A stretch of DNA of 52,454 bases, taken from contig JANNFC010000121.1 of NCBI GenBank assembly GCA_031379405.1, positions 1 through 52,454 on the forward strand. Direction: 5' to 3'. Under the pieces are notes generated by a model. It saw only the letters and a program-made list of their open reading frames with translations. It searched no databases and was not told where the DNA came from. This document shows positions 17,605 through 27,691 of the stretch, piece after piece. The position numbers and the translations under genes were made by a program. Source of the stretch: Betaproteobacteria bacterium (lineage in GTDB: Bacteria; Pseudomonadota; Gammaproteobacteria; Burkholderiales; SHXO01). Every line of letters starts with the position of its first letter. Within the stretch, counting starts at the first letter, position 1.

Positions 17605-18279
17605 ATGCTGATCTCCGTGGTGGTCTATGCCTTCATCTTCGGGTGGTGGTACGCAGTGGGGTTTGTCGCGTTGATTTTCGTGCACGAAATGGGACACTAC
17701 TTGGCCGCGCGGCGTCGCGGATTGGATGTGGGTGCGCCCACCTTCATTCCCTTCGTGGGGGCGTGGATTCAGCTCAAGGACCTTCCGCATGACGCAGAAA
17801 CCGAGGCCTATATCGGTCTCGCAGGACCGGTCGTGGGCACACTGGGAGCGCTGGCCTGTTACTTTTTTGCACGCAGTTACAACAGCGATCTTTTGCTGGC
17901 ACTTTCCTACTCCGGCTTCTTCCTCAACCTGTTCAATCTCATTCCCCTATCGCCGTTCGACGGTGGAAGAGTGACGGCGGTGATCTCGCCGAAATTGTGG
18001 CTGATCGGTGTGCCGATTCTGGTGGCCATGTTCTTCTACCGCCCCAGCCCGTTGTTGATTCTGATGGCGCTGCTCGCTGCACCGCAGGTATGGAAAGCCA
18101 TCAAATTCGATCCCAACGCGCCGGAGAATGCGGCCTATTACACTGTTTCCTCTCGCAAGCGCTGGGAATATGGGATTTGGTATGTCGGACTCGCGGTTTT
18201 TCTGGCCATCATGTCGCACGACGTACATGAGATGTTGCAGGGTGTACGCATGAGTCGTGGTGGCGCGGAGACGATGTAA
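17605..18279 (+). CDS. site-2 protease family (M50) zinc metalloprotease
   Basis: HEMGH zinc motif in TM helix 1, FIPFVGA, the NLIPLSPFDGG second motif, and multiple TM segments. Confidence 0.85.
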   Translation: MLISVVVYAFIFGWWYAVGFVALIFVHEMGHYLAARRRGLDVGAPTFIPFVGAWIQLKDLPHDAETEAYIGLAGPVVGTLGALACYFFARSYNSDLLLALSYSGFFLNLFNLIPLSPFDGGRVTAVISPKLWLIGVPILVAMFFYRPSPLLILMALLAAPQVWKAIKFDPNAPENAAYYTVSSRKRWEYGIWYVGLAVFLAIMSHDVHEMLQGVRMSRGGAETM

Positions 18280-21233: not shown

Positions 21234-21507
21234 GTGAGGGTGGCTGCGCCCGATTCCGGTCACTCGGATCCAAAAGGTGTTGAGCGGTACCGAGACTATT
21301 TGTATCGCTACGCTTTACTTCGCCTACGCGACGAAGCGCGCGCGGAAGACGTCGTGCAGGAAACTCTGCTCGACGCTATTCAGAGCGACGCTCTTCGCTG
21401 GCAAGTCGTCCCTGAAGACCTGGCTCACCGGAATTCTCAAGCACAAGATCATCGACACCTATCGCCGCCATCCCGCCAGAAAGGATGAAGACGAGGATCG
21501 GTTGTAA
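21234..21507 (+). pseudogene. ECF-type sigma-70 family sigma factor remnant (frameshifted, lacks region 4)
   Basis: One frame gives ERYRDYLYRYALLRLRDEARAEDVVQETLLDAIQS (region 2.1/2.2). The continuation, TLFAGKSSLKTWLTGILKHKIIDTYRR (region 2.3/2.4), is in the +1 frame from about 21388. A stop at 21505-21507 follows an acidic linker. No region 4 and no anti-sigma gene follow. Confidence 0.7.
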
Positions 21508-21585
21508 AGCGGCCAGGCCACACGTTCTTCGCCCAAGGGATACAAAACACACGTTACACACCCAAACTTAGCCCGCTCGACTCAC

Positions 21586-21610
21586 ATCCAGCATAATAGC
21601 TCCGCCGTAT
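21586..21610 (+). promoter_or_regulatory. ATCCAGC-N13-CGTAT motif upstream of precursor gene 1 (candidate ECF-type promoter)
   Basis: Identical 7-mer and 5-mer, at identical spacing, to the motif at 23892-23916 upstream of precursor gene 2. xxATCC-N16-CGTAT has the geometry of ECF -35/-10 elements with a CGT -10 core. Confidence 0.5.
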
Positions 21611-21691
21611 AAGCCATACGGTGCGTGCACCGTGTGCCCTCGCACGCGAGTGGCAACGCCAACCAAACTAACCTAAATTGGAGATCAGACC

Positions 21692-22021
21692 ATGACTCGG
21701 AACAAAGCATTGACTCTCGCACTTGGCACCGCCTTCGCCGCGACCCTTGTTGCCTCCCCCGTATTGCGCGCTGCGGATAACCCCTTCGAGATGGAGTCCA
21801 TCAAGAGCGGCTTCCAGGTAGCGGACAACAAGGGTAAGGAAGGCGCCTGTGGCGGCGACAAGAAGAAAGAGGGCGCTTGCGGCGGTGATAAGGCCAAGGA
21901 CGGCGCTTGCGGCGGCGACAAGAAAAAAGAGGGCGCCTGCGGCGGTGATAAGAAGAAAGAGGGCGCCTGTGGCGGTGATAAGAAGAAAGAGGGTGCCTGT
22001 GGTGGAGACAAGGGCAAGTAA
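21692..22021 (+). CDS. secreted repeat-type RiPP precursor: signal peptide plus six KEGACGGDKK repeats (EGxCG, HvfA-like metallophore precursor)
   Basis: GGAGA Shine-Dalgarno sequence upstream. Sec signal peptide MTRNKALTLALGTAFAATLVASPVLRA/AD. Six in-frame 10-aa repeats, each with a single Cys. Lies immediately upstream of the DUF692 and DUF2063 genes. Confidence 0.8.
   Translation: MTRNKALTLALGTAFAATLVASPVLRAADNPFEMESIKSGFQVADNKGKEGACGGDKKKEGACGGDKAKDGACGGDKKKEGACGGDKKKEGACGGDKKKEGACGGDKGK
21836..22015 (+). repeat. 6 x 30-bp in-frame tandem repeat encoding K(E/D)GACGGDK(K/A/G)
   Basis: Read directly. The copies differ mainly at synonymous third positions (TGT/TGC, GGC/GGT, GAC/GAT, AAG/AAA). 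Confidence 0.95.
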
Positions 22022-22225
22022 CAACGCTTTAGGCGCTTAGGGGCCAAGGGTTGACAGAACTGGCGAAGACAATGATGCGACGATACTTTCCCCCGGGGGT
22101 CTACAAGGGGGCCACCCTCTGTTCATTCCTGGGGGATAAACAAGGGGGTGCTCCTCCTGTTCGTAGCAAGCATTTTGGCCGCACAGTCTCGACTGTCTTG
22201 GCTCCGGCGAGGCCAGCTTAAGTTT

Positions 22226-23092
22226 ATGGCCGGACCCCGGAACAACCCCGCGGGCGTGCAAGGCGCGGGGTTGGGTCTGCGGCGGGAATTGATTCCGTCG
22301 CTCAAAACCGCAGTCCCCAACGCCATCCAGTTTTTCGAGCTTGCCCCGGAAAACTGGATGGAGATGGGTGGGTCGAGCGCAAAGAACTTGCGCTTTTTCA
22401 GTGAGCGCTACCGCTTGACTTGCCACGGACTGTCGCTTTCCCTTGGCGGTCCTCAACCTCTCAATGAAGTGTTTCTCACGCGCGTGAAGCGCTTCCTGCG
22501 CGAGCACGATGTGGCGTTATATTCCGAGCACCTCGCCTACACCACGGACGAAGGTTATCTTTACGACCTGTTGCCGATCCCGTTCACGTCTGAAGCGGTG
22601 CGCTATGTCGCCGAGCGCATCAAGCGCACGCAAGACATTCTCGAACGCCGCATCGCCGTGGAGAACGCTTCCTACTACGTTGAAGCGCCGATTAGCGAAA
22701 TGAGCGAACTGGAGTTCGTGAACGCGGTATTAAGCGAAGCGGACTGTTGGCTGCATCTGGACGTGAATAACGTGTACGTGAATAGCGTAAATCACGCGTT
22801 CGATCCGCTCACATTCCTGCGTGGGTTGCCCGCGGAAAGAGTGGTCTACCTGCACATGGCCGGTCATTACAAAGAGGCGGACGATCTCCTGGTGGACACC
22901 CACGGCGCCGATGTGATCGATCAGGTTTGGTCACTGCTAGGGGTCACTTACGCCTTGTTCGGTGCCAAGCCTACGCTGTTGGAACGGGACTACAACATCC
23001 CGCCGCTCAAGGATCTTGCCCTGGAAGTGGAGCGCATCGCCCAAATGCAACGTCCGTACGCGCAGCAACAGCATGTCCGCAGCGCGTCCTGA
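22226..23092 (+). CDS. DUF692 family multinuclear non-heme iron oxidase (MNIO; MbnB/HvfB/BufB-like RiPP maturase), cassette 1
   Basis: GLGLRRE N-terminus, HGLSLSLGG, SEHLAY, VENASYY, LDVNNVYVNS, HMAGH, DTHGADV and TLLERD are the DUF692 TIM-barrel metal-ligand pattern. 288 aa from ATG 22226; the ORF track opens at GTG 22148. Confidence 0.85.
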   Translation: MAGPRNNPAGVQGAGLGLRRELIPSLKTAVPNAIQFFELAPENWMEMGGSSAKNLRFFSERYRLTCHGLSLSLGGPQPLNEVFLTRVKRFLREHDVALYSEHLAYTTDEGYLYDLLPIPFTSEAVRYVAERIKRTQDILERRIAVENASYYVEAPISEMSELEFVNAVLSEADCWLHLDVNNVYVNSVNHAFDPLTFLRGLPAERVVYLHMAGHYKEADDLLVDTHGADVIDQVWSLLGVTYALFGAKPTLLERDYNIPPLKDLALEVERIAQMQRPYAQQQHVRSAS

Positions 23093-23846
23093 ACGGCCGT
23101 CTTTCCAGCGCTATCAAGCAAGCTTTACGGCGCATATTCGTGACCCGAAGGCCAATCCCCGGCCGGCAGGCGTCAGCGCGCGGCGCATGCGTGTGTACAA
23201 CGAGTTACTGTTCAACAACGTGGAAAGCTTCCTTCTGGCGTGCTTTCCCATCACCCGAGAAATTCTGGGCGTTAGACGCTGGTCCAAGCTGGCGCGTGAG
23301 TTCTTCGCCCGTCACAAGTGCCAGTCACCGTTGTTTCGCCAGATACCGGAGGAGTTCGTCCGTTTTCTTCAATCCCGGCGCACGCTACCCATGGAACCGG
23401 TCTTCCTCGCCCACTTCGCCCACTACGAGTGGGTCGAGTTGGAGGTGGATATCTCCTCGGCAGAGCCGGACTGGGATCGCATCGATCGGGAAGGCGACCT
23501 TATACAGGGCTGTCCCGTGCTCAATGGCGCGCTTCGGGTGCTGGAGTATCCCTTCCAGGTCCATCGCATCGGGCCAAAGTTTCAACCCAAGGTGCTCGAC
23601 CCGGAGCCCACGCGCATCGTCGTATTCCGCAATCAGGACGACATGGTTCGGTTCGTCGTCATCAATGCTGTCACTGGGCGCTTGCTGGCGCTTATTTTGG
23701 AGAGGGAAGTCACCGGGGAGCAAGCCTGCCTGCAAATTGCGCAAGAGCTTGGTCATCCCAATCCACCGGCTGTTGTTGCGGGTGGCCGCGACATTTTGCA
23801 GGGACTCCGAGAGCAGGGCGCGATCCTGGGTGCTAGGCGTAAATGA
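23073..23846 (+). CDS. DUF2063 domain protein (HvfC/BufC-like MNIO partner), cassette 1
   Basis: FQ..F...IRDP, VYNELLFNNVESFL...FP and F..F....P pattern typical of the DUF2063 N-terminal domain. ATG 23073 overlaps the end of the MNIO gene by 20 nt. Confidence 0.75.
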   Translation: MSAARPERPSFQRYQASFTAHIRDPKANPRPAGVSARRMRVYNELLFNNVESFLLACFPITREILGVRRWSKLAREFFARHKCQSPLFRQIPEEFVRFLQSRRTLPMEPVFLAHFAHYEWVELEVDISSAEPDWDRIDREGDLIQGCPVLNGALRVLEYPFQVHRIGPKFQPKVLDPEPTRIVVFRNQDDMVRFVVINAVTGRLLALILEREVTGEQACLQIAQELGHPNPPAVVAGGRDILQGLREQGAILGARRK

Positions 23847-24028: not shown

Positions 24029-24286
24029 ATGACTACCAATACGAAACGAACCGGTGTCGCCCTCGCGGCCGCCGCCGCCGCCCTGTTTATGTCCGGTTGC
24101 GCCAGTACCGGCGGCGGCGAGAGCGCAACTGCCGCCAAAGTAATGTGCGGCGGTGTGAATGCCTGTAAGGCCCAAGGCGATTGCAAGACAGCCAGTAACG
24201 GATGCAAGGGCCAGAATGCCTGCAAGGGCCAAGGCGTCGTACAGTTGTCCAAGGATGCTTGCGTTCAGCAAGGCGGAAGGGTCTAA
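24029..24286 (+). CDS. bufferin-like Cys-rich RiPP precursor (6 Cys in the mature part) with a probable lipoprotein signal peptide
   Basis: GGAGAG Shine-Dalgarno sequence 5 nt upstream. MTTNTKRTGVALAAAAAALFMSG/C lipobox-like signal. The mature region has duplicated G-x-N-A-C-K-x-Q-G modules (CGGVNACKAQGDC...CKGQNACKGQG) and a C-terminal C..QGG. Lies directly upstream of the second DUF692/DUF2063 pair. 85 aa. Confidence 0.8.
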   Translation: MTTNTKRTGVALAAAAAALFMSGCASTGGGESATAAKVMCGGVNACKAQGDCKTASNGCKGQNACKGQGVVQLSKDACVQQGGRV

Positions 24287-24292
24287 GTCCCT

Positions 24293-24331
24293 AAAGAACG
24301 GGCTCTGCACAGGAACAGAGCCTGTTCTTTT
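24293..24331 (+). terminator. stem-loop with T-rich 3' side between precursor 2 and its MNIO gene (candidate attenuator or partial terminator)
   Basis: AAAGAACGGGCTCTG-CACAGGAA-CAGAGCCTGTTCTTT(T): a 15-bp stem with one G-U pair. The GC core is followed by TTCTTTT. It starts 7 nt after the precursor stop codon. Confidence 0.5.
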
Positions 24332-24338
24332 CCACGTT

Positions 24339-25205
24339 ATGAATCCGCCTTCCCAGTCTTTGACGCGGCCGAGCCTTGGCTTCGGGCTGGGTCTGCGCAC
24401 GGACCACTACGAGGACATCCTCAATAGCCATCCGCAGGTGGATTGGCTGGAGGTGATCTCCGAAAACTATCTTATCCCAGGCGGAAAACCGCTCTATTTC
24501 CTGGACCGAATCCGCGCCGAATATCCCTGCGTGATGCACGGGGTGTCGCTGTCCATTGGCAGTGTCGATCCTCTGGATCGAGAATACCTGATGCAGCTCA
24601 AGGCGCTCGCACAGCGCATCGAACCCGCGTGGATCTCTGATCACTTGTGCTGGACGGGGATGGCTGGAAAGAATTCGCACGACCTACTCCCGCTGCCGTA
24701 CACCGAAGAAGCTCTCAAGCATATCGCCCAGAAAGTGCGGCAACTACAAGATTTTCTTGGGCGGCGCATTCTGCTGGAAAACGTGTCGAGTTACGTGAGC
24801 TACAAGGAATCGACCCTTACGGAGTGGGAATTCCTGAGCGCTTTGACGCGGGAAGCCGATTGCCTACTGCTGCTCGACGTCAACAACATCTACGTTTCTG
24901 CCTTCAACCATCAGTTCGACGCGGAAGAGTTTCTGCGTGGCGTGCCTGCTGAGCGGGTGCAACAGATCCATCTAGCAGGTCACAGCGACTGCGGCGACCA
25001 CCTCATCGACACTCACGACGCCGATATCATCGATCCGGTGTGGGCGCTTTACGGCAAGGCCATCGAACTGCTGGGCCCCGTTTCCACCATGATCGAGCGT
25101 GACGACCACATTCCGCCGCTGGCCGATCTGGTGGCCGAATTGAGCATCGCGCGCGGCATGTTGGATAAGTCGTTACACAAGGCGCCGCAACAGGTGGCGG
25201 CATGA
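24339..25205 (+). CDS. DUF692 family multinuclear non-heme iron oxidase (MNIO; BufB-like RiPP maturase), cassette 2
   Basis: GFGLGLRTDH, HGVSLSIGS, SDHLCW, LENVSSY, LDVNNIYVSA, HLAGH, DTHDADI and MIERDD. 288 aa from ATG 24339, the same length as the cassette 1 paralog. Confidence 0.88.
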   Translation: MNPPSQSLTRPSLGFGLGLRTDHYEDILNSHPQVDWLEVISENYLIPGGKPLYFLDRIRAEYPCVMHGVSLSIGSVDPLDREYLMQLKALAQRIEPAWISDHLCWTGMAGKNSHDLLPLPYTEEALKHIAQKVRQLQDFLGRRILLENVSSYVSYKESTLTEWEFLSALTREADCLLLLDVNNIYVSAFNHQFDAEEFLRGVPAERVQQIHLAGHSDCGDHLIDTHDADIIDPVWALYGKAIELLGPVSTMIERDDHIPPLADLVAELSIARGMLDKSLHKAPQQVAA

Positions 25206-26053
25206 GCGCACTACAGACACTGCAACGCGAATTTCAGGACTTCGTCCTGGATGGCCGAGCTGAGATCGTGCAAAGAGTCGTCGGAACCTCGAGCGTCGAC
25301 CCCGCGCGCCGCTTGGGCGTTTACTACGATGCCTATCGTTTGCGGCTGATAGAAGCGCTGCAAACCGACTACACCTCCCTGAAAATCGTAATGGGCGAGG
25401 ATGACTTCGCCCAATCCATGGGCGCCTTTGTGGAGGCGACGCCATCGGTGCATCGTAATCTGCGTTGGTACGGCCAGTCTTTGCCAGAGTTCTTGCGCAC
25501 GCGCGCGCCCTCTGCGGAGCAGCCATGGTTGTGGGAGCTTGCGCTGTTCGAGTGGACCATCGCGCTCGCTTTCGATGCCGCCGATGAGCCTGTCCTGACC
25601 TTCGACGATCTGGCCGCCATGGACTCAGGAATTTGGCCATACCTGACCTTTAAATTTCATCCTTCGCGGCAACGCTTGTCACTGCGCACCAACGCCGCGA
25701 GTTTGCGCAAGGCGGTGGATGAGGAGGCGCCGATTCCCCCACCGGAACGCCTCGCGCAACCCATTCAGTGGTTGCTCTGGCGTAAGGACCTCACGGTCAT
25801 GTTTCGCTCGCTACTGCCGGAAGAGGCGTGGGCGCTGGACACTGCCCATGCCGGTGGTAACTTTACCGAGTTGTGCGAAGGTCTTTGTCAGTGGGTCGCT
25901 CCGGCGGCGGCGGCGGGCCGCCTTGCCGGGATGTTGCGCACTTGGGTGGATGATCAACTCATTGCGGCGGTGGGGTCTCCCGCGTCCGTAGGGTGCGTTT
26001 TAGGCACCGTGGCCGTGCATGCACACCTTATTGCGTCAGGGCGCGGACCGTAA
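25202..26053 (+). CDS. DUF2063 domain protein (BufC-like MNIO partner), cassette 2
   Basis: LQ.EF..FVL...., YYDAYRLRLIEALQTDY, F..FV...PS..RNLRWYG..LPEFL. ATGA start/stop overlap with the MNIO gene. The last ~25 codons read through a REP-like element and into the 3' end of the convergent gene. Confidence 0.78.
   Translation: MSALQTLQREFQDFVLDGRAEIVQRVVGTSSVDPARRLGVYYDAYRLRLIEALQTDYTSLKIVMGEDDFAQSMGAFVEATPSVHRNLRWYGQSLPEFLRTRAPSAEQPWLWELALFEWTIALAFDAADEPVLTFDDLAAMDSGIWPYLTFKFHPSRQRLSLRTNAASLRKAVDEEAPIPPPERLAQPIQWLLWRKDLTVMFRSLLPEEAWALDTAHAGGNFTELCEGLCQWVAPAAAAGRLAGMLRTWVDDQLIAAVGSPASVGCVLGTVAVHAHLIASGRGP
25988..26012. repeat. degenerate REP-like element copy
   Basis: GTAGGGTGCGTTTTAGGCACCGTGG matches the family seen at 8178-8221 (reverse complement GTAGGGTGCGTTCCACGCACCACGG) and at 11166-11189. 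Confidence 0.45.
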
Positions 26054-26483
26054 TCGCCGTCTTGAACGTCTTTTTCTTCTTGTTCTCCGAGACGATCAGT
26101 TCCAGCGCTATCTCGTCCCCTTCCTTGAGCGGTCCCTTCAACCCCAGCAACATCAAATGGATGCCCATGGGCGCCAGCGTGACCGTCTCGCTGGCCGGTA
26201 GCTCCAGCAACTTAAGCTGGCGCATGCGCATGATGCCCTCCTGCATGCTGGTGCTATGTATTTCGACTGTTTTCGCCACGCTGGTTTTCACCGCCAACAA
26301 CTGCGCTCGTTTAGGACTGGTGATCGTGAGATAGGCCGCGCCCACCGTTTGCCCCGGAACGGTGGCTCGCGCCCATCCGTCCGATATCTCCAAGGCTGCC
26401 GCGTTGGTGGCGCACAACCACAGTCCAAGTATGTAGCCCGACACCTGCGACTTCCCGATCCATCTACTTGTTCTACTTGTCAT
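26028..26483 (-). CDS. copper chaperone PCu(A)C (DUF461 family)
   Basis: Signal peptide, then DGWARAT.PG...GAAYLTI and the H(x)nM...M..HxM copper motif region (EIHSTSMQEGIMRM...APMGIHLML). The likely start is ATG 26483; the ORF track extends to 26570. Confidence 0.8.
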   Translation of the reverse strand: MTSRTSRWIGKSQVSGYILGLWLCATNAAALEISDGWARATVPGQTVGAAYLTITSPKRAQLLAVKTSVAKTVEIHSTSMQEGIMRMRQLKLLELPASETVTLAPMGIHLMLLGLKGPLKEGDEIALELIVSENKKKKTFKTAITVRALTQ

Positions 26484-26539
26484 TGCGTGTCCCGGCCATT
26501 GCGAGCATACGCTCGTATAATTCGTATTTTGCCATCGGC

Positions 26540-27691
26540 ATGCGCCCACACCTAGTTTCTCTGTCTGCATTGCTCTCTTTTGCCTTGCTCGCGCTGACTT
26601 TTTCCGCGCCGGGCTTTGCGAACCCTAATCCCACCCACCCCACCATAGCCGCCAAGGCTTACTACCTGCTCGACCTGCAAACCAATCAGGTACTCGTGGC
26701 CCATCGCGCCGACGAGCGCGTGGAGCCGGCTTCCCTCACCAAGCTCATGACGGCCTATGTGGTATTTGGCGCCCTCAAGCAGAAGCTTGTCACCACGGAG
26801 CAGCGCATCACGCCCTCGGTCAAGGCGTGGAAAACCTCCGGTTCGCGCATGTTTATCGAGCCCAATAGGCCCGTGGCTATCGACGAGCTTCTGCGCGGGA
26901 TGATCATTCAATCGGGCAACGATGCCAGTGTCGCCCTTGCCGAAGCGGTGGCGGGCGACGAGACCGCCTTCGCCGGCATGATGAATCGCGAAGCTCAGCG
27001 CCTCGGGTTGAAGAATTCGCACTTCGTCAACGCCACCGGATTACCGGACGACAAGCACTACAGCTCGGCGGCCGATCTGGTGCGCCTGGCGGCGGCGGTC
27101 ATTCGCGATTTTCCGGAGCACTATCCGCTCTACGCGATGCGCGACTACACCTATAACGACATCACTCAGCCCAATCGCAACCTGCTGCTCGGCAAGGATC
27201 CCTACGTGGATGGCGTGAAGACCGGATTCACCGAGAATGCCGGCTATTGTCTCATCGCGTCGGCGAAGCGGGAGACACGGCGTCTGGTCGCCGTCGTGTT
27301 GGGTGCCGCCTCGGAAAATTCGCGCGCCATCGAAGCGCAGAAACTGCTCAACCACGGCTTCCAATTCTTCGAGAATGTCCGCTTGTACGAGAAGGACGCG
27401 CCACTATCGAAGCTGGAAGTGTGGAAAGGCAGCGAGCGCGAAGTGCCCATCGGCTTTCACCAGGACTACATCGTCACCATACCGCGTGGACAGAAGGATC
27501 AACTCAAGGCGAAGATGGAGAGTGTCCAGCCATTGCTCGCGCCCATCAGCACGGGGCAAGTCGTGGGTACCCTGAGACTCACGTTTGCTGGTAAATCCTA
27601 TGGCGAGCGCTCCGTCGTATCGCTGGCCAACGTTGGAATCGCCAATTTCTTCGCGCGCACCTGGGACGGTATTCGTCTGCGGTTCAAGTAG
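26540..27691 (+). CDS. D-alanyl-D-alanine carboxypeptidase (serine-type, PBP5/6 family)
   Basis: Signal peptide. SxxK (ASLTKLMT), SGN (QSGNDAS) and KTG (VKTGFT) active-site motifs. PBP5 C-terminal domain. Confidence 0.9.
   Translation: MRPHLVSLSALLSFALLALTFSAPGFANPNPTHPTIAAKAYYLLDLQTNQVLVAHRADERVEPASLTKLMTAYVVFGALKQKLVTTEQRITPSVKAWKTSGSRMFIEPNRPVAIDELLRGMIIQSGNDASVALAEAVAGDETAFAGMMNREAQRLGLKNSHFVNATGLPDDKHYSSAADLVRLAAAVIRDFPEHYPLYAMRDYTYNDITQPNRNLLLGKDPYVDGVKTGFTENAGYCLIASAKRETRRLVAVVLGAASENSRAIEAQKLLNHGFQFFENVRLYEKDAPLSKLEVWKGSEREVPIGFHQDYIVTIPRGQKDQLKAKMESVQPLLAPISTGQVVGTLRLTFAGKSYGERSVVSLANVGIANFFARTWDGIRLRFK

Follow-up and report, generated by a model that had tools for sequence, protein, structure and literature searches.

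The precursor gene and its maturation genes

An open reading frame (ORF) at positions 21692-22021 of contig JANNFC010000121.1, from the Betaproteobacteria bacterium assembly GCA_031379405.1, encodes a small protein in which a signal peptide and a short leader are followed by six decapeptide repeats, each containing one cysteine. All positions refer to the 52,454-nucleotide stretch of DNA that was analysed as a whole, here called the window. We consider it likely that this ORF is the precursor (A) gene of a captophorin operon of the hvfABC/fonABC type, whose product would follow the thiooxazole and Cu(I) pathway set out below. What is new here is modest: a natural, evenly spaced variant in which every site is Ala-Cys, and which is missed by current hidden Markov models (HMMs). 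The captophorin family has been described in detail since 2024, its repeat architecture, its modification at multiple sites and its multivalent binding of copper included. The operon is made up of the following features.

21692..22021, + strand: whole precursor gene, hvfA-like, 109 amino acids (aa), ATG start; from the ORF listing and homology searches
21692..21772, + strand: Sec-type signal peptide, 27 aa, with an n/h/c layout by inspection and kept in every homologue
21773..21835, + strand: conserved 21-aa leader ADNPFEMESIKSGFQVADNKG, the probable docking region for HvfC (RRE)
21836..22015, + strand: six 30-nt units encoding K[E/D]GACGGDK[K/A/G], with six predicted Cys modification sites 10 residues apart
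22226..23092, + strand: hvfB, MNIO (DUF692) peptide maturase (NF003818, 410.6 bits, cut-off 360; PF05114, E = 1.7e-102)
23073..23846, + strand: hvfC, DUF2063/RRE partner (PME1) (NF050145, 278.9 bits, cut-off 142; PF09836 and PF22106)

The precursor ATG has a ribosome-binding site, GGAGA, 7 nt to its 5' side, and the protein can be laid out as MTRNKALTLALGTAFAATLVASPVLRA / ADNPFEMESIKSGFQVADNKG / six 10-aa units / terminal K. A preliminary description of this DNA, made from the letters alone, had placed the ORF, a 21-aa spacer and six decapeptides at 21836-22015 exactly where we find them, and its interpretation has turned out to be essentially right. The signal-peptide-like segment is composed of MTRNK + ALTLALGTAFAATLVASPVL + RA, and inspection together with alignment predicts cleavage at LRA/AD, with a positive n-region, a 20-aa hydrophobic core and Ala at -1; in the homologues the aligned cleavage region ends ...NA/AENPF or ...NA/DENPF. 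By inspection, then, the precursor has the Sec signal peptide that characterises the family, and its hydrophobic segment ALTLALGTAFAA is kept in all homologues. The homologue alignment shows little or no variation in the leader motifs NPF and G(Y/F)QVA.

Tandem Repeats Finder describes the repeat as having a period of 30, 5.7 copies and 82% matches, with no indels. The stretch that is strictly invariant between units is K-x-GACGGDK, position 2 being E or D and position 10 being K, A or G. The preliminary description had called EGACGGDK an invariant core; this holds for GACGGDK and fails for the E, since unit 3 reads DGACGGDK. The precursor therefore presents five EGACG sites and one DGACG site, and no Lys-Cys at all. 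For the predicted signal-cleaved peptide of 82 aa we computed an average mass of 8114.95 Da when unmodified and 8090.76 Da with six modifications; the corresponding monoisotopic masses are 8109.79 and 8085.60 Da. AlphaFold2, run with the family alignment, returned a predicted local distance difference test score (pLDDT) of 44.6 and no secondary structure, and for this reason we treat the precursor peptide as disordered; the same prediction lends no support to a beta-helix of the kind that has been reported for certain long EGKCG proteins.

The two genes that follow encode an HvfB-family MNIO maturase and an HvfC-family partner, identities that are clearly shown by scores above the NCBI equivalog cut-offs for both. 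The hvfB product also matches Pfam MbnB_TglH_ChrH, and carries the motifs HGLSLS, EHL, ENAS, DVNNVYVN, HMAGH, DTHG, ERD and GLGLRR. In HvfC, both DUF2063 (PF09836) and NGO1945_C (PF22106) score above their gathering thresholds. The start of hvfC, whose start codon was checked, overlaps the end of hvfB by 20 nt. The precursor thus lies beside an MNIO gene (hvfB, 22226-23092) and a DUF2063/PME1 gene (hvfC, 23073-23846), as members of the family do.

Relatives of the precursor and family membership

A search of 5.8 billion proteins yielded 49 homologues of the precursor, with E values of 1e-14 to 1e-50, and a profile search of 1.84 billion cluster representatives yielded 1,299 at E<=1e-3 and 315 at E<=1e-10. 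The relatives share a common build, in which a signal peptide and a leader of the form [D/E]NPFxMxSLKxGYQVA are followed by 2-12 units of [E/D]G[K/S/A]CG. Counts of leaders and of the residue before Cys were taken on the 150 best cluster representatives, 135 of which have the leader motif. Repeat number varies between homologous loci, from 4-6 in the closest relatives to 2-12 across the family. Cysteines, in contrast to repeat number, keep a strict register, with a spacing of either 5 (EGKCGEGKCG) or 10-11 residues (EGxCGGDKxK), so that the hypervariable junk without a conserved Cys register, which the preliminary description had named as the outcome that would overturn it, is not what the homologues show.

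We examined 80 genome loci, all from Beta- and Gammaproteobacteria and including Sulfuricellaceae, Thiobacillaceae, Rhodocyclaceae, Alteromonas, Pseudomonas, Thiohalophilus and Cycloclasticus. The closest are betaproteobacterial metagenome-assembled genomes (Sulfuricellaceae, Rhodocyclaceae, Thiobacillaceae and 'uncultured beta proteobacterium'). An HvfB homologue is encoded in 64 of the 80 loci, and in 61 of the 80 hvfB and hvfC lie immediately downstream of the precursor gene on the same strand. The 16 loci that have a precursor and no MNIO in the fetched stretch, which covers at most 8 kb of flank per side and is much shorter for some contigs, are L004, L010, L011, L030, L033, L034, L051, L053, L055, L056, L068, L070, L073, L077, L079 and L080; orphan precursor genes are also known for bufferins (PMC12452194).

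The residue before Cys is K in 68% of cases, S in 19% and A in only 3%. Precursors whose sites are all Ala are correspondingly few: only one other, P0123, occurs among the 150 representatives, and otherwise they are confined to the immediate clade of the window (P0001, P0002, P0003, P0006 and L110). P0123 appears to be an independent case: its five units read EGACGGK(M/V)K, and it differs in leader and tail. Other proteins, among them P0004, P0007 and P0010, mix K and A sites within one chain, and these link the all-Ala precursor of the window to the canonical EGKCG precursors.

Pfam and NCBIfam scans gave no meaningful match to the precursor, and neither of the curated HvfA models, NF050137 (KCGExKCG_twice) and NF050188, matches it even at E<=10. 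The all-Ala P0003 likewise matches neither of these two models, whereas K-type precursors (P0005, P0038 and those of Alteromonas, Cycloclasticus and Thiohalophilus) match NF050137 above its cut-off. The Lys-Cys dyad of the family is also missing, although E/D, G, C and G are kept and position 3 alone differs. Against this, the signal peptide and the leader can be aligned with those of proteins that carry EGKCG, at E values down to 1e-40. Judged by homology and gene context, the precursor is thus clearly an uncatalogued, otherwise ordinary member of the HvfA/Buf_EGKCG-oxazolin/captophorin ('Lys-Cys' group) family, even though the dyad and the HMM matches are lacking. The 'Buf_EGKCG/oxazolin' group has been described as comprising about 2,000 proteins of 31-506 aa (PMC12452194).

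Comparison with characterised systems

By sequence, the closest studied system is FonABC of Fontimonas thermophila (PMC12668002). Both are minimal A-B-C sets without DoxX, and in both precursors a signal peptide and an F...GY.VA leader precede repeated E-G-x-C-G units; the window leader aligns with the FonA leader SVFQASDLGAGYMVA, and BLASTP aligns precursor and FonA over their full length at 9e-14. Sequence identity is 57% between the window HvfB and FonB and 42% between HvfC and FonC, with Arg15/Arg16 (GLGLRR) and the catalytic Asp249 (ERD) conserved. The two systems differ in their sites, since FonA has seven Lys-Cys sites arranged in 5-spaced doublets and triplets, while the window precursor has six Ala-Cys sites that are all 10-spaced, and in a single enzyme residue, which is Phe250 in FonB and Tyr in the window HvfB. 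They differ too in that modification has been demonstrated for FonA, at seven sites (PMC12668002), and is predicted for the window peptide. In favour of that prediction, FonBC accepts Ala before Cys, as in the substrate EAACGEGACG, and requires a small residue after Cys (PMC12668002); the residue after Cys in the window precursor is Gly.

Oxazolin, the product of HvfABC(X) in nontypeable Haemophilus influenzae (PMC11252979; revised in 10.64898/2026.06.05.730506), also derives from a Sec-exported, six-Cys repeat precursor and an HvfB/HvfC pair, and it is after these two proteins that the NCBIfam models matched by the window enzymes are named. The six Cys of HvfA, in three AEGKCGEGKCG motifs, are modified by HvfBC to give a product that binds Cu(I), and the HvfA signal peptide is cleaved in E. 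coli (PMC11252979). Unlike the window system, HvfABC(X) has these doublet motifs, an unrelated N-terminal region with a C38-C43 disulfide and a DoxX gene, and identities are lower (45% for HvfB, about 21% for HvfC).

For the decapeptide layout itself, the best experimental precedent is found in the gonophorin system NgoABC(X) of Neisseria gonorrhoeae, where all 7 of 7 Cys in NgoA are modified, including those of three xGSCGASKSA units 10 residues apart (PMC12668002). There, as in the window, single Cys sites are spaced by 10 and follow a small residue. NgoA differs in having EGKCGEGKCG doublets, an unrelated leader and a DoxX gene, and NgoB is 50% identical to the window HvfB. With the adjacent HvfB and HvfC matches and the precedents of HvfA, FonBC and NgoA, the earlier statement that EGxCG repeats are modification sites of HvfA-type MNIO substrates stands.

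Two further groups are more distant. The bufferins, BufA1 (DUF2282) and BufA2 (Buf_6/12Cys) with BufBC (PMC11626156, PMC12452194), are likewise Sec-exported copper-binding ribosomally synthesised and post-translationally modified peptides matured to 5-thiooxazoles by MNIO/DUF2063 pairs, but they are folded domains without repeats and carry Cys-Lys or DUF2282 signatures; the window precursor matches neither DUF2282 nor NF050166. Methanobactin (MbnA/MbnBC) resembles the window system in that its copper ligand is made from Cys of a ribosomal peptide by an MNIO, and is unlike it in being a leader-core peptide without a Sec signal, with two sites, oxazolone/thioamide chemistry and a role in copper acquisition. 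The window MNIO scores 30.5 bits against the MbnB model TIGR04159 (cut-off 325), and the precursor is Sec-type and repetitive.

A residue implicated in substrate choice sets the window HvfB apart from these enzymes. We mapped Asp249 and Phe250 from the published FonB sequence; FonB, HvfB and NgoB read ERDF at this point, whereas the window HvfB reads ERDY (23050-23060), with Tyr at the position of Phe250, which in FonB influences selectivity for the residues flanking Cys (PMC12668002). Phe is present there in about 95% of HvfB homologues. ERDY also occurs in L081, L083, L084, L089 and L110, which with the window makes six independent contigs with intact operons. We considered Tyr250 as a switch towards Ala-Cys specificity and rejected it, because ERDY accompanies Ala-rich precursors in the window, L081, L083, L084 and L110 and also the precursor of L089, with three K sites and one A site. 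Covariation of Tyr250 with Ala-Cys fails from the other side as well, as ERDF enzymes adjoin precursors with up to 50% Ala sites (L090, L091, L093, L112). The Tyr, which is confined to the clade of the window, is therefore better viewed as a clade marker than as a proven specificity switch.

Proposed pathway and alternatives

The modification common to the family converts Cys to 5-thiooxazole, with a loss of 4 Da, absorbance at about 305 nm and an alkylatable product; it was first called oxazolone/thioamide, and both an independent group and the authors of that first assignment have since reassigned it to 5-thiooxazole (PMC12668002; 10.64898/2026.06.05.730506). On this basis we infer the following pathway. 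In the cytoplasm, a complex of HvfB, an iron- and O2-dependent MNIO, and HvfC, its RRE partner, would bind the precursor, with HvfC docking it, probably via the conserved leader. HvfB would then oxidise the Cys of each of the six [E/D]GACG sites to a 5-thiooxazole that includes the preceding Ala carbonyl, removing four H per site. The modified peptide would be exported by Sec and cut by signal peptidase at LRA/AD, giving a disordered periplasmic chain of 82 aa rich in Lys, Asp, Glu and Gly. Its thiooxazole N,S ligands would bind Cu(I), probably with each Cu shared by two sites and about 3 Cu on each chain, and possibly between chains. Copper-stress buffering, beside a BufA2 bufferin and a PCuAC chaperone, would be the likely role; the copper context of the precursor consists of the neighbouring BufA2BC and PCuAC genes.

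The stoichiometry proposed here follows that of relatives, since oxazolin takes up about 1 Cu(I) for every two modified sites (PMC11252979) and fontiphorin up to 4 Cu for 7 sites (PMC12668002). The preliminary description had anticipated a multivalent metal binder, which fits the copper binding of both products and for this peptide remains a prediction drawn from them. Multi-site binding is the published norm in the family, and is therefore no distinguishing mark of the window peptide.

Several points weigh against this account, in addition to the failure of the HvfA models to match the precursor. All experimental precedents come from relatives, none of them with a natural all-Ala-Cys precursor, and in vitro FonBC left a single-repeat substrate unmodified (PMC12668002). 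All studied members hold some Cys pairs 5 residues apart, which are proposed to chelate one Cu; the window precursor has no such pair, so that copper stoichiometry and binding geometry could differ. A DoxX gene, frequent though not universal in such clusters, found no match among the scanned window ORFs. Finally, the degraded extracytoplasmic function (ECF) sigma and anti-sigma genes, together with an unusual insert of 204 nt before hvfB, are signs of locus decay or rearrangement and make expression uncertain.

These last features also speak for another reading, in which the precursor Cys stay unmodified and serve as a thiolate metal binder, or the operon is decaying and silent. The upstream sigma gene is frameshifted and truncated and its anti-sigma gene lost, the gap between precursor and hvfB is 204 nt as against 6-23 nt in relatives, and HvfB carries Tyr at the Phe250 selectivity site. 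Yet all three ORFs are intact, with catalytic and metal-ligand motifs kept, and comparison with the closest relative gives a dN/dS (ratio of non-synonymous to synonymous substitution rates) of about 0.09 for hvfB and about 0.13 for the leader; this purifying selection speaks for past function of the system in this lineage. A putative promoter and the ribosome-binding site are retained, L082 and L083 keep the operon without any sigma gene, and the Tyr variant recurs in six independent contigs with intact operons. An unmodified or silent precursor is accordingly possible but disfavoured, and we give it a low probability.

Slightly less probable still, in our view, is that the ORF encodes a multi-core precursor, whose decapeptides, bounded by invariant Lys (DK-x-KE), would be cut apart after modification and export into six mono-thiooxazole peptides of about 1 kDa. 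The units are unusually uniform, and Lys at positions 1 and 9 is invariant in 31 of 31 Ala-type units from seven genes (that of the window and six related genes from metagenomes, L081, L083, L084, L086, L087 and L088); moreover, whether EGKCG products stay one polypeptide or are cleaved by host proteases was left open in PMC12668002. However, the cluster has no protease gene, the nearest being an M50 peptidase at 17605-18279 beyond intervening housekeeping genes, and a strict dibasic site is absent, because position 10 varies (K/A/G/Q/N). Many family members have EGKCGEGKCG with no linker to cut, and Cu(I) binding in relatives takes about two sites per metal. If it were true, the locus would encode a bacterial multi-core metallophore precursor instead of one polyvalent chain. 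In a milder variant, the Ala-Cys clade with its Tyr250 MNIO may be a captophorin subclass in its own right, with a separate substrate code and copper stoichiometry.

Selection on the repeat units

Returning to the ORF as a captophorin precursor gene, the DNA of its repeats shows that it is the peptide that is conserved. Across the 15 pairs that can be formed from the six units, synonymous codon differences number 62 and non-synonymous differences 14, the latter lying almost wholly at linker position 10. The mean proportion of synonymous differences between units (pS) is 0.70, which is saturated, as against 0.075 for non-synonymous differences (pN), a pN/pS of 0.11. In the nine core codons, all 8 of the 8 variable columns are third positions, while 0 of 18 first and second positions vary (chance P≈4e-6).

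The same codon scrambling is seen in the six related genes, since the 31 units comprise 27 distinct DNA sequences and only 3 peptides: KEGACGGDK (23 units), KDGACGGDK (7) and a decayed KEGASDGDK (1). With synonymous sites saturated while the peptide is kept, in seven genes, the data support strong purifying selection on each retained unit and disfavour recent slippage, as had been proposed in the preliminary description. The alternations that it listed (TGT/TGC, GGC/GGT/GGA, GAC/GAT, AAG/AAA and GCC/GCT) are all found across the units, as is the single-nucleotide difference between units 4 and 5 (TGC/TGT). These two units look like a recent duplication, and their near-identity, with copy numbers of 4, 5 or 6 among the closest relatives of the window, indicates that whole units are gained and lost.

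It is very unlikely that concerted evolution, by gene conversion or replication slippage, has kept the units alike with no need for selection on the peptide. The single nucleotide that separates units 4 and 5 and the range in copy number are what such a process would leave; it would also be expected to homogenise the DNA, and what we observe is a saturated pS with invariant first and second core positions, and the same substitution pattern in six other genes, which refutes the idea for five of the six units. Hardly any weight, lastly, falls to a chance low-complexity ORF, or to a real gene on the opposite strand (antisense ORFs 21668-22024 or 21685-22047, -), for although both long antisense ORFs span the repeat and JGI labels homologues 'uncharacterized low-complexity protein', variation at third positions alone fits only the + frame, fixing it and ruling out the antisense ORFs, and signal peptide, leader, ribosome-binding site and the place directly 5' of hvfB are kept in more than 100 loci.

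In the seven genes, the Lys at position 9 of the unit is always encoded by AAG (31 of 31 units), whereas position 1 uses AAG in 21 and AAA in 10; the preference at position 9 may serve to keep long A-runs out of the K-K-K junctions.

Implications

The current picture of the captophorin family is unchanged by this locus. What it does is widen the natural substrate range of the very widely distributed MNIO-PME1 (captophorin) systems beyond the Lys-Cys, Cys-Lys and DUF2282 classes, with a whole precursor that has Ala-Cys sites only. Because the NCBI HvfA models key on KCGExKCG, Ala-Cys precursors are invisible to them; those that are missed end up as 'hypothetical' or 'low-complexity' proteins, and their clusters look as if they had no precursor. 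The combination of Ala before Cys and Tyr at the Phe250 site makes the locus a natural test case for MNIO selectivity, and it offers a way to see whether single thiooxazoles at even spacing differ in their copper binding from the 5-spaced pairs studied to date. The codon-scrambled repeats also provide a clean example of selection acting on every unit of a repetitive peptide.

Genomic neighbourhood

The operon is flanked by a regulator remnant and a putative promoter, interrupted by a long spacer, and followed by further copper genes.

21288..21471, + strand: remnant of an ECF sigma-factor gene, broken by a frameshift near 21392 and cut off after about 76 of about 195 residues
21585..21613, + strand: putative ECF-type promoter CATCCA-N15-CGTATAAG, about 107 nt 5' of the start codon
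22022..22225, + strand: hairpin-rich 204-nt spacer between precursor and hvfB, unique to the window (6-23 nt in relatives)
24029..26053, + strand: second captophorin system, bufA2 (24029-24286), bufB (24339-25205) and bufC (25202-26053), from NCBIfam/Pfam
26028..26570, - strand: PCuAC copper chaperone gene (PF04314, E = 5.9e-33), convergent with bufC

When the intact sigma factor of L084 was used as a tblastn query, two segments in different reading frames were recovered, and region 4 was absent; the anti-sigma gene is gone from the window locus except for a possible C-terminal trace. Both L084 and L088 have an intact pair of sigma and zf-HC2 anti-sigma genes 5' of the precursor, while in L082 and L083 the sigma gene is wholly absent and the operon kept. 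L081, L082, L084, L086 and L088, all close relatives, have the promoter motif (CATCC-N15/16-CGTA) at an equal distance from the start, and CATC[CT]-N14-18-CGTA is present upstream in 15 of the 72 distinct regions taken from homologous loci, as compared with 0.7% of random 220-nt windows. The motif at 21585-21613 is thus plausibly an ECF promoter that has outlived its sigma gene; a sigma-70 promoter scan upstream of the precursor gave no match.

Sequence similar to the 204-nt spacer was found neither elsewhere in the window nor in the fetched loci L001-L085, and its folding z-score of -2.35 is modest. A mobile element or a known RNA was considered and set aside, as the spacer has no second copy, no Rfam match and only weak, imperfect 9-nt inverted repeats. 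Candidate readings are an attenuator, an mRNA stabiliser or an insertion scar.

Downstream of hvfC, BufA2 scores 81 bits against NF050166 (cut-off 60) and BufB 388 bits against NF050167 (cut-off 310), and bufC matches DUF2063. BufB carries GLGLRT and ERDD, both reported for Cys-Lys-type MNIOs (PMC12668002). In none of the 80 genome loci does BufA2 lie next to the precursor. In L001, L005, L006, L013 and L045 a PCuAC homologue directly follows hvfC on the opposite strand, and in the window bufA2BC stands between the two; given this adjacency in five relatives, the bufA2BC cassette of the window looks inserted. Elsewhere the window carries ordinary chromosomal housekeeping genes (argB, dacC-like, lipAB, accC and others). 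The BufA2 signal peptide ends ...AALFMSGC/AS, which is lipobox-like, so that this bufferin may be a lipoprotein, and the protein has six further Cys, four of them in a Cys-Lys context.

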